From the NCBI GenBank assembly GCA_050175015.1, contig JBFXJJ010000021.1:1-24956 (forward strand): a stretch of 24,956 nt of DNA, given 5' to 3'. This DNA comes from Alphaproteobacteria bacterium. GTDB lineage: Bacteria > Pseudomonadota > Alphaproteobacteria > JBFXJJ01. Positions 20,101 through 24,956 of the stretch are shown here, one piece after another. Both the position numbers and the translations under genes were made by a program. Within the stretch, counting starts at the first letter, position 1; each line of letters opens with the position of its first letter. The notes below the pieces were generated by a model. The model ran no database searches, was not told where the DNA came from, and was given only the letters and a program-made list of their open reading frames with translations.

Positions 20101-20188
20101 GCCTCCTTGGCGGAATAGGTAGACGCAACGGACTTAAAATCCGTTGGGCTTTATGCCCGTGCCAGTTCGAGTCTGGCAGGAGGCACCA
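20101..20188 (+). tRNA. tRNA-Leu (anticodon TAA)
   Basis: Acceptor stem GCCTCCT/AGGAGGC plus A-CCA, anticodon arm ACGGA-CTTAAAA-TCCGT, long variable arm GGGC-TTTAT-GCCC and T arm GCCAG-TTCGAGT-CTGGC. Confidence 0.98.
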
Positions 20189-20193
20189 TTTAC

Positions 20194-20220
20194 AAAAACC
20201 TGCGTTTCAGCAGGTTTTTT
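20194..20220 (+). terminator. Terminator after tRNA-Leu
   Basis: AAAAACCTGC-GTTTCA-GCAGGTTTTTT. Confidence 0.85.
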
Positions 20221-20516
20221 GTTGCCCAAAGTTTGGGGCAAAAATAGCCGTTAAAACCTGAAAGGGACACCGTGGGGACATTCAGGCAAAAACAATCACA
20301 ATAAGTACCAATCAATACCAGCTCTTTTGAAAATTTTATTTTTTATAAAAAATTTAAAATATTAAACGGATTTTTGTTGTTATGGCTTTTAATTGTCCCA
20401 AAACCAAAAAATTATATTCATAAAAGTTATAATATAGCTTATATTATAATCATACAACACGGAAAAAAAATCTTATTAGTCTTTGTTTGAGTTTTTAGTT
20501 TCTTTAAGAGGTTTTT

Positions 20517-21581
20517 ATGGCAACCATTGAAAAAAGAGAAAGCGAAAAAGGTGTCCAATACAGGGTTAGAATCCGCAAAAAGGGATATCCAACTCAGTCA
20601 GCAACCTTTTCACGTTTAACAGATGCTAAAAATTGGGCTAATGAAATTGAAACAGCGATGTTTAATAAAAAGTATTTCCCTGCTGCTGAACTTCGTAAAA
20701 AAACTTTCTCTGAATTAGTGGAGCGTTATATTCAAGATGTTTTATCTAAAAATCATAAAAAAGCATATAATAACATTCCTAAACTTAAATGGTGGCAAGA
20801 AGAACTCGGGATTTATTGTTTGTCAGATATCACAACAAGTTTAATTTATGATGCAAGGCAAAAATTATTAAACAATCCTACCAAAAAAGGTTCTTTGCGT
20901 TCTAATGCTACGGTTAACAGATATTGTGCGGCATTATCTAAGCTTTTGAATGTTGCGGTTAATGAATGGCAATGGCTTGAAAATAATCCAATGCAGAAAA
21001 TCAAAAAACTTAAAGAGCCAAGAGGGCGGGTTCGCTTTTTATCACAAGATGAAAAGAACGCTTTGCTTAAAGCTTGCAAAGAAAGTGCTAGTCATCATTT
21101 ATACAGCATAGTTTATTTAGCTTTAAGCACGGGGGCAAGACACGGCGAAATTGTAAATCTTAAATGGAAGCAGGTTGATTTTAGCCGTAAGGTTATAACT
21201 CTTTATGAAACCAAGAATGGCGAAATTAGAGTTTTGCCGATAGTTGGCAATACTTATGATTTGATGTTGGAGCTTTATAATTCAAAAAATGCCAAAAGTG
21301 ATTTGATTTTCCCAAGTTATAATAATATTAACAAACCAACTAATATAAGAACCGCTTGGGAGATTGCTCTTGAAAAAGCAGGGATTGAGGATTTTAGATT
21401 TCACGATTTAAGACACTCAACCGCATCTTATCTTGCAATGAACGGAGCAACATTAGCCGAGATTGCAGAGGTCCTAGGGCATAAAACTCTTGCTATGGTC
21501 AAAAGATACTCACACCTATCCGAAGCCCACACCGCAGGCGTTTTAGAACGAATGAATAAAAAGTTTTTAGGTGATGAGTAG
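20517..21581 (+). CDS. Site-specific tyrosine integrase
   Basis: Catalytic set R (TGARHGE), K (ETKNG), H-x-x-R (FHDLRH), H (LGH) and Y (KRYSH). N-terminal arm-binding-like YRVRIRKKG. RBS AAGAGG. Confidence 0.96.
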   Translation: MATIEKRESEKGVQYRVRIRKKGYPTQSATFSRLTDAKNWANEIETAMFNKKYFPAAELRKKTFSELVERYIQDVLSKNHKKAYNNIPKLKWWQEELGIYCLSDITTSLIYDARQKLLNNPTKKGSLRSNATVNRYCAALSKLLNVAVNEWQWLENNPMQKIKKLKEPRGRVRFLSQDEKNALLKACKESASHHLYSIVYLALSTGARHGEIVNLKWKQVDFSRKVITLYETKNGEIRVLPIVGNTYDLMLELYNSKNAKSDLIFPSYNNINKPTNIRTAWEIALEKAGIEDFRFHDLRHSTASYLAMNGATLAEIAEVLGHKTLAMVKRYSHLSEAHTAGVLERMNKKFLGDE

Positions 21582-21588
21582 TTACGAG

Positions 21589-21621
21589 ATAAAGGGGAAT
21601 TAAATTAAGATTCCCCTTTAT
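21589..21621. terminator. Hairpin between convergent integrase and cargo gene
   Basis: Perfect 12-bp inverted repeat ATAAAGGGGAAT / ATTCCCCTTTAT. The T-run follows on the minus strand. Confidence 0.8.
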
Positions 21622-21635
21622 AAAAAATTAAGACG

Positions 21636-22415: not shown

Positions 22416-22436
22416 TTAAGTTTTAAAATTAAAAAA

Positions 22437-23303
22437 TTAGTTTGAAATTTTTCTATATGTTTCAAACAACTCGGTTAAGTCTGTTTTGCCTTTTTTCTTT
22501 GCCATATCATAAGCAGAAATACCTTTTGAATTTTTTTGAAAAGGGTCAGCACCTTTTTCTAAAAATAGTTTGATAGTCTCAATATTAATATGGTCATTAT
22601 TTACAGCAAGAATCAAAGGAATGCCTTTGTTTTTTGCAGAAGCATTTACATCTACTCCCGTTTCTAAAAGAATTGCGATTATTTGATTCTGCTTTTCTTC
22701 GATATTAAGAAAAGAATACATTAAAGGAGTTGCGTCCTTATTATCTTTACTATTTACATCAGCCCCATTTTTAATTAATAAATCAACGACATCAGGTGAG
22801 CTTGAAATCACAGCATACATTAAAGGTGTTTTTTCATAAAATCTTGACTTTTTATTAACATCTACGCCTTGTTTTATCACGCTTTCTATTACTTCTTTAT
22901 CTCTCTGTAAAAGAATAACATCTGTTAACACATTTCCCGATAAAATCGTGGGTAATTTAGGATTAAATCTATTAGAAAAAAGATTTATAACCTGCTCATT
23001 TGTGCTGGACCTTAAATAAGAAAGCATATATAAATTGCTGATATAAAAAAGAGCATAAATGTCGCCTAAAATTATCAATGCAATGAAAAAATAAAATAGT
23101 TTTTTAAAAGTCTTATATTTTCTAAGCCATCTAAATAAAAAAACTAAAAAAACAGTAATAACAACTGCAAAAATTCCTATATAGATTGTTTGCTTAAGAT
23201 CATTATCAAGCAACTCTTGATTAGGCATAAAATCACCTGCTCTTGCCATTTTATTTAAAAAACATAGTCCTAAAAATAATAAAAAATTAAATATTTTTTT
23301 CAT
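22437..23303 (-). CDS. Membrane-anchored ankyrin-repeat protein
   Basis: Signal-like N-terminus and two TM helices, then about 4-5 ankyrin repeats (KTPLMYAV...LLIKNGADVN; ATPLMYS...GVDVN; IPLILAV...GADP). Confidence 0.9.
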   Translation of the reverse strand: MKKIFNFLLFLGLCFLNKMARAGDFMPNQELLDNDLKQTIYIGIFAVVITVFLVFLFRWLRKYKTFKKLFYFFIALIILGDIYALFYISNLYMLSYLRSSTNEQVINLFSNRFNPKLPTILSGNVLTDVILLQRDKEVIESVIKQGVDVNKKSRFYEKTPLMYAVISSSPDVVDLLIKNGADVNSKDNKDATPLMYSFLNIEEKQNQIIAILLETGVDVNASAKNKGIPLILAVNNDHINIETIKLFLEKGADPFQKNSKGISAYDMAKKKGKTDLTELFETYRKISN

Positions 23304-23696
23304 AAAACACCCATAACGTTCTTTCTTGGAATAATACGATTATTACAAGAAAAGACAAAACAAACTTTTATAAAGATTTAAGGTTATGGAAAATATCCGC
23401 CTTTATTAATTAAAGGGCTGTTTTAAGAAAACAAGAACAGTTATCCTTTGAATTAATTCTATATACCATAAAAAAGATAAATTGTCAAGGAATTTATTCC
23501 TATTTGTGAGGATTGAGTTTCGATTCTCATGTGTTTTTTCTAAAAAACTGTGAGTAGTTTTTGGTGTTTTTATCAGCCTCAATAAATCACAAAAAATGGC
23601 AAAAAGCAGGCTATAAAAAACGCCATAAAATTAGGCTTTTCAAGACAAATAGCATATAATTTTAAGAGTTATTTTAAACCAATAAAGCTTGAAATT

Positions 23697-24029
23697 ATGA
23701 AGCCAGAATTTAATAAAAAAACTGCTAATATTTTAGTCAGAGTTACATCGAGGGAAAAACATGTTTTTAGTGAAAAAGCTAAAAAGCATGATTTATCAAT
23801 GTCGGCTTTTTTAAGAATGCTTGTTTGTCAAACTCCGTTTCCTAATGTTGAAAAAATCGAAACTATAAAAAACCTTCTTAAAATTAATGCCGACTTAGCA
23901 AGGCTTGGCAACTTGTTTATGCTGGCAATCAGTGAGGGTTTTGACTTTGAGGAAATTATTAATACTTCTAAAGAAATCAAAGAAACCGTTTTGGTTTTAA
24001 AAGATAAAATTATCCAAATATCAAAATGA
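23697..24029 (+). CDS. mobC: MobC/TraJ-like relaxosome accessory (ribbon-helix-helix) protein
   Basis: ILVRVT..EK......A....LSMSAFLR and INADLARLGNL motifs. The ORF overlaps the relaxase start (ATGA). Confidence 0.85.
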   Translation: MKPEFNKKTANILVRVTSREKHVFSEKAKKHDLSMSAFLRMLVCQTPFPNVEKIETIKNLLKINADLARLGNLFMLAISEGFDFEEIINTSKEIKETVLVLKDKIIQISK

Positions 24030-24472
24030 TTGCCAAGCGTGTCAAAAGAGAAACTGGCTCAAATTTTAAAAGGCTTGCTAAATATATTGCCGATGCTTCT
24101 GATGAAGGCGAAAAGCTAGATGACTTCTGGATAGTTAATTCAATAGCAGGTGAAAGCCTAAATGATTTAGACCTTGCCATAATCGATATTGAAATCACTC
24201 AAAACAAAAATATAAGAACTACTCAAGATAAAACCTATCATCTAATAGTTTCTTTTAGGAATGATAAACCAGATAGAAAAGCTCTAAAAGATATTGAATG
24301 TGAATTTGCCAAAGCTCTTGGGCTTGAAGAACATCAAAGAGTTGTTGGCACTCATCAAAACACCGATAACTTTCATATGCACATTGCTTATAACAAGGTT
24401 GATCCGAAAAACCATAATATAAAAACTCCGTTTCAAGAGTTTAAAAAGCTCTCTAAAGTTTGTCGTGCAATA
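24026..24472 (+). pseudogene. Truncated MOBP (TraI/MobA-type) relaxase; the ORF reads on to 24688 through non-relaxase and CRISPR sequence
   Basis: Motif I (MIAK...F.RL.KYI), motif II (TYHLIVSF) and motif III (HQNTDNFHMHIAYNKV). Similarity stops after LSKVCRAI (about aa 149). The last ~37 codons are CRISPR repeat/spacer sequence. Confidence 0.8.
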
Positions 24473-24575
24473 CAGTATGCCTGTAAATTTGATATTCAAT
24501 ATTACATAAAACAATATGGCGGCAAGAGTTTTATGTTTGGAAGTTCTTCAGGCAGAAGAGGAACTGAAGAAGCAA

Positions 24576-24956
24576 ACTCTTTATTACAGCTATATAGGAG
24601 TAGTCTTCAACCCACAAGAGATAGCAAATTAACAGAGTATCGGTGTAGTCCCCCGTTATATGGGGGTAGTCTTCAACACCATATTTAATGATGACTCCTC
24701 TAGCAGAGGTGTAGTCCCCCGTTATATGGGGGTAGTCTTCAACAGCTGAAACGGTGTAGTTGATTATTGCTGAGGTGTAGTCCCCCGTTATATGGGGGTA
24801 GTCTTCAACTGGGAAAATACGATAATCCTTTAATGATAGGGTGTAGTCCCCCGTTATATGGGGGTAGTCTTCAACTATGTTGTTAAATATAAAGGAATAA
24901 AAAAAGGTGTAGTCCCCCGTTATATGGGGGTAGTCTTCAACAACTTGTCAACAGTT
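24576..24956 (-). CRISPR. CRISPR array with type VI-A (Cas13a)-like repeat, truncated by the window edge
   Basis: Five identical 36-nt repeats GGTGTAGTCCCCCGTTATATGGGGGTAGTCTTCAAC at 24642-77, 24708-43, 24774-809, 24840-75 and 24906-41. A degenerate terminal repeat lies at 24576-611. Five unique 30-nt spacers and one partial spacer give a 66-nt period. Confidence 0.98.

Follow-up and report, generated by a model that had tools for sequence, protein, structure and literature searches.

A truncated MOBP relaxase beside a type VI-A CRISPR array: a probable remnant of an integrative and mobilizable element at a tRNA-Leu gene of an uncultured alphaproteobacterium

The stretch of DNA discussed here (the window) is the entire 24,956-bp contig C21 of an alphaproteobacterial metagenome-assembled genome (MAG), which comprises 2.53 Mb in 49 contigs, with an assembly completeness of 99.4% and a GC content of 30-39% per contig. 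From position 20101 onwards the window holds the only tRNA gene that ARAGORN finds in it, tRNA-Leu(taa), followed by an integrase gene (intA), two cargo genes, mobC and the beginning of a MOBP relaxase gene, whose open reading frame (ORF) then runs into a CRISPR array of type VI-A, in which the contig ends (Table 1). We think, with moderate confidence, that the segment between the tRNA and the array (hereafter IME A) is what remains of an integrative and mobilizable element (IME) immobilised by one or more deletions that ended at the trailer of the array, and that the type VI-A locus occupies this integration hot spot independently of it.

A relaxase gene that stops short of a CRISPR array

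The model NF041893 (TraI/MobA(P)) aligns with residues 1-150 of the window protein over model positions 1-152 of 502 and gives 178.9 bits, below the whole-protein cut-off of 250; relB, the relaxase of a complete element (IME B) on contig C4, gives 332.1 bits and passes it. The N-terminal nuclease domain of a MOBP relaxase is present, with LAKY (Y20) and HQNTDNFHMH (aa 110-119), which we take to be the tyrosine and histidine motifs of relaxases, both kept here and conserved in all paralogues. Five full-length paralogues are encoded elsewhere in the genome (468, 509, 595, 520 and 521 aa), and the alignment of every one of them with the window protein (63-73% identity, relB being 73% identical over aa 1-150) ends at aa 150. 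At the level of DNA, similarity to relB and to the copy on contig C3 is strong to about position 24475 and weak to about 24495.

Outside this genome, a search of a collection of 5.8 billion proteins, covering homologues of 121-385 aa, returned 51 at E <=1e-10, of which 37 are at least 340 aa long; nearly all homologues of that size are listed with both PF03432 and PF22863, the window protein with PF03432 only. Taken together with the paralogues, the relatives of the relaxase are 344-595 aa long. Seven of the 14 shorter homologues were inspected and look broken, having unrelated ends, being fused to a transposase fragment, or lying on contigs of 0.9-1.7 kb, and a naturally short form of this relaxase is therefore not supported. 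After the break the ORF continues through 115 nt of other DNA, a remnant of a CRISPR repeat, the first full repeat and spacer 11 between these two, to a stop at 24688, and its final 32 codons (aa 189 on) are repeat and spacer DNA. If the deletion explanation is right, what reads as a 220-aa "relaxase" is a pseudogene that accidental read-through has joined to CRISPR DNA.

An earlier sequence-only reading of this DNA, made by a model from the letters alone, had already listed a tRNA-Leu, an intact integrase, cargo, mobC and a relaxase, all of which are indeed present. It had also considered the relaxase truncated, with similarity lost at about aa 149, some 100 bp before the array trailer, and an ORF running through repeat DNA. 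The truncation is borne out by the lengths of the relatives, the point of loss is now measured at aa 150, 115 nt before the repeat remnant, and the read-through is as described above.

Table 1. Features of the window between the tRNA-Leu gene and the contig end (window coordinates).
Feature	Position	Strand	Basis or remark
tRNA-Leu, anticodon taa	20101-20188	+	ARAGORN; integration target, attL side
GGGACA-N5-GGGGACA pair, candidate integrase arm-type site	20264-20280	+	about 75 nt past the tRNA
intA, tyrosine integrase, 354 aa, apparently intact	20517-21581	+	PF00589 1.5e-35; PF24624 Int_N
orf259, cargo gene with no assigned function	21636-22415	-	only a sub-threshold PG_binding_1 match, E 0.005
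Cargo gene, membrane-anchored ankyrin-repeat protein, 288 aa	22437-23303	-	Ank_2 5e-18
Conserved non-coding block before mobC, probable origin of transfer (oriT) and promoter	23500-23680	+	
mobC, NikA/MobC-like relaxosome accessory gene, 110 aa	23697-24029	+	PF21983 6.2e-12
Relaxase ORF, 220 aa	24026-24688	+	overlaps mobC by 4 nt; PF03432 at aa 36-150
MOBP relaxase remnant, codons 1-150, nuclease core	24026-24475	+	NF041893 1.8e-52
Tail between homology break and array, 115 nt	24476-24590	+	
Truncated twelfth, trailer-most repeat	24591-24611	-	first 21 nt of the 36-nt unit, 2 mismatches
Trailer half of type VI-A array, reaching the contig end	24612-24956	-	36-nt repeats, 30-nt spacers

The tail that separates the break from the array gives a hint of how the gene was shortened. 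A segment of 43 nt (24484-24526) resembles nucleotides 1206-1245 of relB, that is codons ~402-415, in frame, with a local DNA score of 38 (reached in 0 of 1000 shuffles, and in 2 of 2000 random windows of equal length from the genome), and with 10 identities out of 16 in the corresponding protein high-scoring segment pair. This resemblance makes an internal deletion within the relaxase gene suggestive rather than proven. The 63 nt between the relB-like codons and the repeat remnant are unassignable, and a sensitive blastn search with the tail against the genome returned only the tail itself and the CRISPR repeat.

Another reading of the tail, as a colinear but diverged continuation of the relaxase, was tried and rejected. 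The tail was compared with a profile of 42 homologues covering the region after the conserved CR..E motif; the score is -1.3, equalled or bettered by 1161 of 2652 scored shuffles. A BLASTP alignment with the database protein P0119 that reaches aa 208 was also set aside, since aa 189 onward is encoded by CRISPR DNA and the alignment there must be due to chance.

The junction itself is found in sequence data assembled by another route. A landfill-metagenome run (X1), which is probably the source sample of the MAG, is the only run with a strong match to the window sequence (0.88 of its words), no RNA run being among those listed, and its Logan unitigs, built separately, tile positions 15000-24671 with no differences. 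One of them (unitig 8, 341 nt, depth 16.1, 0 differences) covers 24331-24671 and takes in the break, the tail, the repeat remnant, the first full repeat and spacer 11 between these two. Depth in X1 is 13.8 over the chromosomal flank and 14.4-18.9 over the pieces of IME A, and this equality, together with the difference-free unitig across the junction, argues against a chimeric junction and also against a multicopy or episomal state. Three further landfill runs (X2, X4 and X6) yield only fragments at low depth, 90-95% alike, from the ankyrin region, from mobC and from the relaxase 5' region; none of these fragments crosses the break, and they do not inform us on the ancestral form. Joints with sides of 20-28 letters were left aside in this comparison.

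The type VI-A locus and the attachment sites around it

The array continues on another contig. Five exact full repeats lie in the window (at 24642, 24708, 24774, 24840 and 24906), preceded by the repeat remnant, which keeps the regular 30-nt spacing; the 15 nt that stand in place of the rest of its unit agree with it at only 4 of 15 positions. The only other occurrence of the repeat in the assembly is within the final 600 nt of contig C4, where it points the other way, and the ends of C21 and C4 overlap by 213 nt with 6 mismatches. Once joined, they form an array with 11 spacers, each of 30 nt, 11 full repeats and a truncated twelfth one. Comparison of the two contig ends (window 24750-24956) shows 4 differences in spacer 8 and 2 in spacer 9, the repeats and spacer 7 being identical, and these differences could be contig-tip errors or two variants of the array in the population. 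An A/T-rich leader is found on the C4 side, where the array begins 92 nt past the stop codon of cas13a; since the leader is beside cas13a, it is the trailer of the array that touches the relaxase remnant. Self-targeting spacers were sought in the genome and none was found, the best match outside the array being one of 20 out of 22 nt within a stretch rich in T.

The cas13a gene lies on C4, at 15943-19314 of the 20-kb locus L001 (G000:C4:189304-209303). Its two halves match NF038188 at 2e-51 and 5e-144 (model positions 1-432 and 480-1192 of 1192), and the best match among solved structures is PDB 7os0 (3.8e-64). A Cas13a effector thus adjoins the array, as in type VI-A systems, and the type VI assignment made by the sequence-only reading stands. 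The nearest other Cas13a is 39% identical, apart from one database protein (P0001), and a first scan of genome contigs for close relatives of cas13a found none. The MAG copy carries an in-frame TAG at L001 17089-17091, where P0001, an intact protein of 1123 aa that is 100% identical over the C-terminal 706 aa, has a glutamate. The TAG belongs to a cluster of six codon differences from P0001, at least five of which can be accounted for by the MAG having a T at a place where P0001's residue requires a G; P0001 keeps R364, W377 and D387, invariant in 14 aligned Cas13a sequences and changed in the MAG copy. We think that the TAG is probably an assembly error or a strain variant. There is no cas1 or cas2 at the cas13a locus: the sole cas1 match in the genome and the stronger of two cas2 matches are on contig C16, and the weaker cas2-like match is on C35.

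An IME inserted at a tRNA gene should be bounded by the tRNA and by a duplicate of its 3' end (attR), and it is this second site that is missing from IME A. With a query made of 48 nt of the tRNA-Leu 3' end and 27 nt of flank, the best local score is 21 for the remainder of C21 and 26 for the 40 kb past the array, the maximum over 200 shuffles being 31; a genome-wide blastn-short search with 20051-20330 gave no match longer than 16 nt to the 3' half of the tRNA. One 13-nt match, rich in A, at C4 196533-196545 was not accepted as attR, being inside IME B, overlapping the tRNA by 3 nt and having an E-value of 8.3. The same procedure readily recovers the sites of two sibling elements: on contig C8 it returns an alignment of 54 nt, 45 of them in tRNA-Arg, 39.9 kb downstream (score 97, shuffled maximum 32), and for IME B it returns the tRNA-Val duplicate (score 73, shuffled maximum 28). 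With no attR for IME A, there is no support for its being able to excise, and the cas locus cannot be assigned to its interior.

On the other side of cas13a, 224 nt upstream of the gene, there is a 57-nt copy, 88% identical, of the 3' end of a tRNA-Val gene, which is the attR of IME B. That element (L001 5961-15719) is complete, extending over ~9.7 kb from tRNA-Val to the duplicate of its 3' end, and encodes a 424-aa integrase, BrnT/BrnA, YafQ/RelB, a small ORF, MobC, the 468-aa relaxase relB, an IS630-like transposase in two ORFs, one gene of unknown function and a C-N hydrolase. A direct repeat, CAGGAACC-N-CAGGAACCAGAATTT, is present near both of its ends and may represent arm sites. Read over the two contigs, the order is tRNA-Leu, remnant of IME A, array, cas13a, attR of IME B, IME B itself and tRNA-Val; the tRNA genes converge, and the DNA between them is all accessory. 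No further fragment of tRNA-Val or tRNA-Leu that would bracket cas13a and the array was found; two att sites of IME A on either side of the cas locus, as expected of a mobile defence island, are not seen, the nearest att site beyond cas13a being that of IME B.

How the junction may have arisen

In the scenario that we favour, IME A would have integrated at the tRNA-Leu 3' end by means of the tyrosine integrase that it encodes, in a form that had an oriT, a MobC/NikA protein and a MOBP relaxase of ~470 aa, and that would have been mobilised by a helper type IV secretion system (T4SS). One or two illegitimate deletions would later have taken relaxase codons ~151 to ~400, as well as the 3' end of the gene up to the trailer-most repeat of the neighbouring cas13a locus, attR included; the integrase, the cargo, the oriT-like block and mobC would be the survivors. 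Having lost both attR and a functional relaxase, the element would be able neither to excise site-specifically nor to be mobilised. The cas13a locus would be a separate tenant of the interval between tRNA-Val and tRNA-Leu, with IME B holding the tRNA-Val side.

The sequence-only reading had offered as one option that a deletion had joined the element to the array, and this is the option that we retain. Its further suggestions have not fared so well. The element was called excision-competent, yet no duplicate of the tRNA-Leu 3' end is seen in C21, in the 40 kb past the array or anywhere in the assembly, where those of siblings are detected; and it was called a defence island, yet the cas13a-array module is not placed inside IME A and has the attR of IME B on its other side. 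Two findings that by its own terms would have refuted this reading were also looked for: the region 24440-24600, for which it proposed a check of read pairs, is spanned by the X1 unitig and is not an obvious misassembly, and close homologues of naturally ~150-220 aa were not seen among the short forms inspected.

Several observations should make one cautious about the deletion scenario. No close relative of the genome (RpoB is 66-73% identical to that of Rhodospirillales, Acetobacteraceae and other Alphaproteobacteria, and all 60 other genomes in a search for relatives are related at the level of the class only) or of the element was found that would show the ancestral arrangement. The source is a MAG, with no read or contig seen to bridge the whole array, and the X1 unitigs are not independent of the assembly if, as is probable, X1 is its source. 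The join between C21 and C4 is deduced from the 213-nt overlap, all 6 mismatches of which fall in the last 90 nt of C4. The signal for an internal deletion is specific to one paralogue, relB, and a profile built from the C-termini of the five paralogues gives no signal for the tail. Finally, the sibling on C3 also shows no att duplicate in the 17.8 kb to its contig end, which means that a missing duplicate is not always informative.

The first alternative is that cas13a and its array were the distal cargo of IME A, a type VI-A defence island in fact, and that the relaxase was damaged later. We consider this improbable. It has in its favour that there is only accessory DNA between tRNA-Leu and tRNA-Val, that sibling IMEs such as IME B hold cargo distal to the relaxase, and that a plasmid-like contig (L106) pairs a cas13a homologue with a MobC and a relaxase 43-50% identical to those of this genome. 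The expected trace of a tRNA-Leu fragment is nevertheless absent, both from the ~230 nt between cas13a and the attR of IME B and from elsewhere; moreover, the 3' end and the stop codon of the relaxase gene are gone, so that a deletion reaching the array would be needed in any case.

The neighbourhoods of cas13a in other species bear on the same question. In a survey of 61 loci encoding Cas13a relatives, fetched with up to 10 kb of flank (11 of the 61 are shorter than 15 kb), a tblastn search with the proteins of this genome, whose narrow queries make the rates lower bounds, found the related MobC/MOBP relaxase pair at a single locus and intA- or intB-like integrases at two; ARAGORN found tRNA genes at eight. 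The single relaxase case is L106 (473-16580), a contig of a Methylocystaceae MAG that looks like a plasmid: besides the cas13a homologue (38% identical) and the MobC/relaxase pair it encodes RepC, a nuclease, a zeta-toxin-like gene, a large serine recombinase, DUF6710 and DUF5131, and TRF found no array beside its cas13a. It remains conceivable, if unlikely, that the minimal cas13a module, which has no cas1 or cas2, was once the distal cargo of a MOBP-type IME or plasmid in this alphaproteobacterial lineage and that the vehicle was dismantled after delivery, a reading that fits the cas13a homologue of L106, which is accompanied by a related MobC and relaxase. The survey gives no support for a general IME route, and no report of Cas13 loci carried by IMEs appeared in the part of the full-text literature that the search covered. 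The idea, put forward in the sequence-only reading, that this locus illustrates how type VI systems spread on small IMEs is thus not supported, the only locus with a related relaxase being plasmid-like.

A second alternative is that the junction, or the join of the two contigs, is an assembly artefact of a mixed population and that no single cell has relaxase and array side by side. The origin of the MAG in a landfill metagenome invites this suspicion, as do the patches of C4 that disagree with other data (the 6 mismatches at its end and the 6 cas13a codons that differ from P0001). We find it very improbable all the same, in view of the separately built unitig over 24331-24671, with no difference and a depth like that of the flanks, of the restriction of the repeat to these two contig ends, and of the orientation, the leader beside cas13a and the degenerate last repeat, which all fit a single array.

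Still less can be said for cas13a and its array being a cis-mobilizable passenger accreted to IME B and leaving with it via a distal att site, which we regard as highly unlikely. The attR of IME B is directly upstream of cas13a, and accretion at tRNA sites is known for integrative elements; against this, no second tRNA-Val-like site exists through the array, IME A and tRNA-Leu, the scores there being 17-18 with shuffled maxima of 27-32. Lastly, we find it hardly credible that the protein of 150-220 aa could be a relaxase short by nature that still nicks oriT in a mobilizable element: its nuclease core is complete, with the Tyr and 3-His motifs, mobC is intact and the conserved upstream block is present, but all five paralogues and 37 of the 51 homologues are at least 340 aa long, nearly all homologues of that length are listed with PF22863, the short forms inspected look broken and the last 32 codons are CRISPR DNA.

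If the deletion scenario is true, we are dealing with the routine decay of an island at a tRNA hot spot, and IME A should not be counted as a mobile element. The value of the finding would lie mostly in annotation, the 220-aa "relaxase" being a fusion of a pseudogene with CRISPR DNA. It would also mean that the end point of a deletion can fall at the terminal repeat of an array, or no more than 63 nt away from it, with the 11 usable spacer units left undisturbed. Two further aspects are mildly interesting, namely the presence of a very divergent Cas13a between two IMEs in an uncultured alphaproteobacterium of low GC content and the six copies of one MOBP relaxase family in one genome. The locus would have a bearing on the spread of type VI systems between hosts only if the cas module proves to be former cargo of an IME or plasmid.

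Other features of the element, its siblings and known systems

IME A has a site-specific recombinase of its own. A motif search located the catalytic residues of intA (R208, K233, H296, R299, H322 and Y331), and its paralogues on C3 and C8 are 72% and 71% identical and of equal length. The gene starts 329 nt downstream of tRNA-Leu, in the same orientation, an arrangement also seen in the siblings at tRNA-Ser (C3) and tRNA-Arg (C8). The position of the GGGACA-N5-GGGGACA pair is kept in these three intA-type elements; the pair has 8 hits genome-wide, one of them near the tRNA-Arg att duplicate of C8, and a second copy of the arm-site motif (GGGRCA-N-GGGRCA) was not found near the relaxase/array junction.

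The cargo consists of orf259, for which PADLOC, NCBIfam and Atlas gave no usable match, and of the ankyrin gene, whose product matches the PADLOC candidate PDC-M72A at 7e-22 in its ankyrin region and is hydrophobic in its N-terminal third, as read from the translation. The pair recurs, so that it is found at three loci in all (window 21636-23303, C8 83304-85025 and C1 112961-114510, with 33-43% identity), and it has the look of a mobile cassette of two genes with no assigned function. One of the copies adjoins an integrase fragment, and a 74-codon piece of the window ankyrin gene, 93% identical, lies at C8 88775-88996.

About 190 nt of the block upstream of mobC are common to the C3 element only, and a 12-pair inverted repeat occurs at 23505-23531. 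Judging from sequence conservation, we think that this block is a likely candidate for oriT; a scan for promoters and terminators gave counts at or below the shuffled expectation. MobC shares 68% identity with its C3 counterpart and 41% with that of IME B. The element is thus a mosaic, in which the integrase, MobC and the 190-nt block are closest to the C3 element and the 5' part of the relaxase is closest to IME B. No T4SS genes are found within it, the ORFs from the tRNA to the array being those of the integrase, orf259, the ankyrin protein, MobC and the relaxase remnant only.

The relaxase family has six copies in the genome (on C2, C3, C4, C8, C10 and C21), each with a mobC, and the associated integrases are of at least two kinds, modules having been shuffled among the copies. 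On C8, a 40-kb island (35606-75660) that begins with an intA-type integrase extends from tRNA-Arg to a copy of 45 nt of the tRNA 3' end. A further integrase, a mobC and a relaxase lie inside this island, which is probably a set of tandem or nested elements. Decayed elements of this kind are common in the genome, examples being the integrase fragment, the 93%-identical fragment of the ankyrin gene and the several IME copies. One VirB4 and three homologues of the type IV coupling protein (T4CP) are encoded on other contigs and could serve as mobilisation helpers.

Elsewhere in the window, positions 4681-6099 encode a member of the ADP-dependent phosphofructokinase/glucokinase family (PF04587, 1.6e-78); this family is mainly archaeal, and its occurrence in an alphaproteobacterium seems unusual. 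A cluster on the minus strand (7102-14610) encodes a family-2 glycosyltransferase, a HEAT-repeat protein, a TPR/YaiO-like outer-membrane protein, a double-receiver response regulator and a PAS histidine kinase, and may be a locus for the secretion of exopolysaccharide and its regulation.

IME A and its neighbouring locus can finally be set beside three known systems. One is IME B, which also targets the 3' end of a tRNA and has a related relaxase (73% identical over aa 1-150) and MobC (41%); IME B is complete, however, and its 424-aa integrase is a different one, only 30% identical to intA. With tRNA-targeting IMEs that carry MOBP relaxases, of which this genome has five fuller copies, IME A shares the integrase next to the tRNA, the overlap of mobC and relaxase, the small cargo and the absence of a T4SS, whereas its relaxase is reduced to 150 codons, its attR is undetected and it ends in a CRISPR array. 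Compared with type VI-A loci, such as that of the Cas13a in PDB 7os0, the neighbouring locus is minimal, with no adjacent cas1/cas2, a divergent protein and an in-frame TAG, but it agrees with them in its 36-nt repeat, its 30-nt spacers and the leader that adjoins cas13a.

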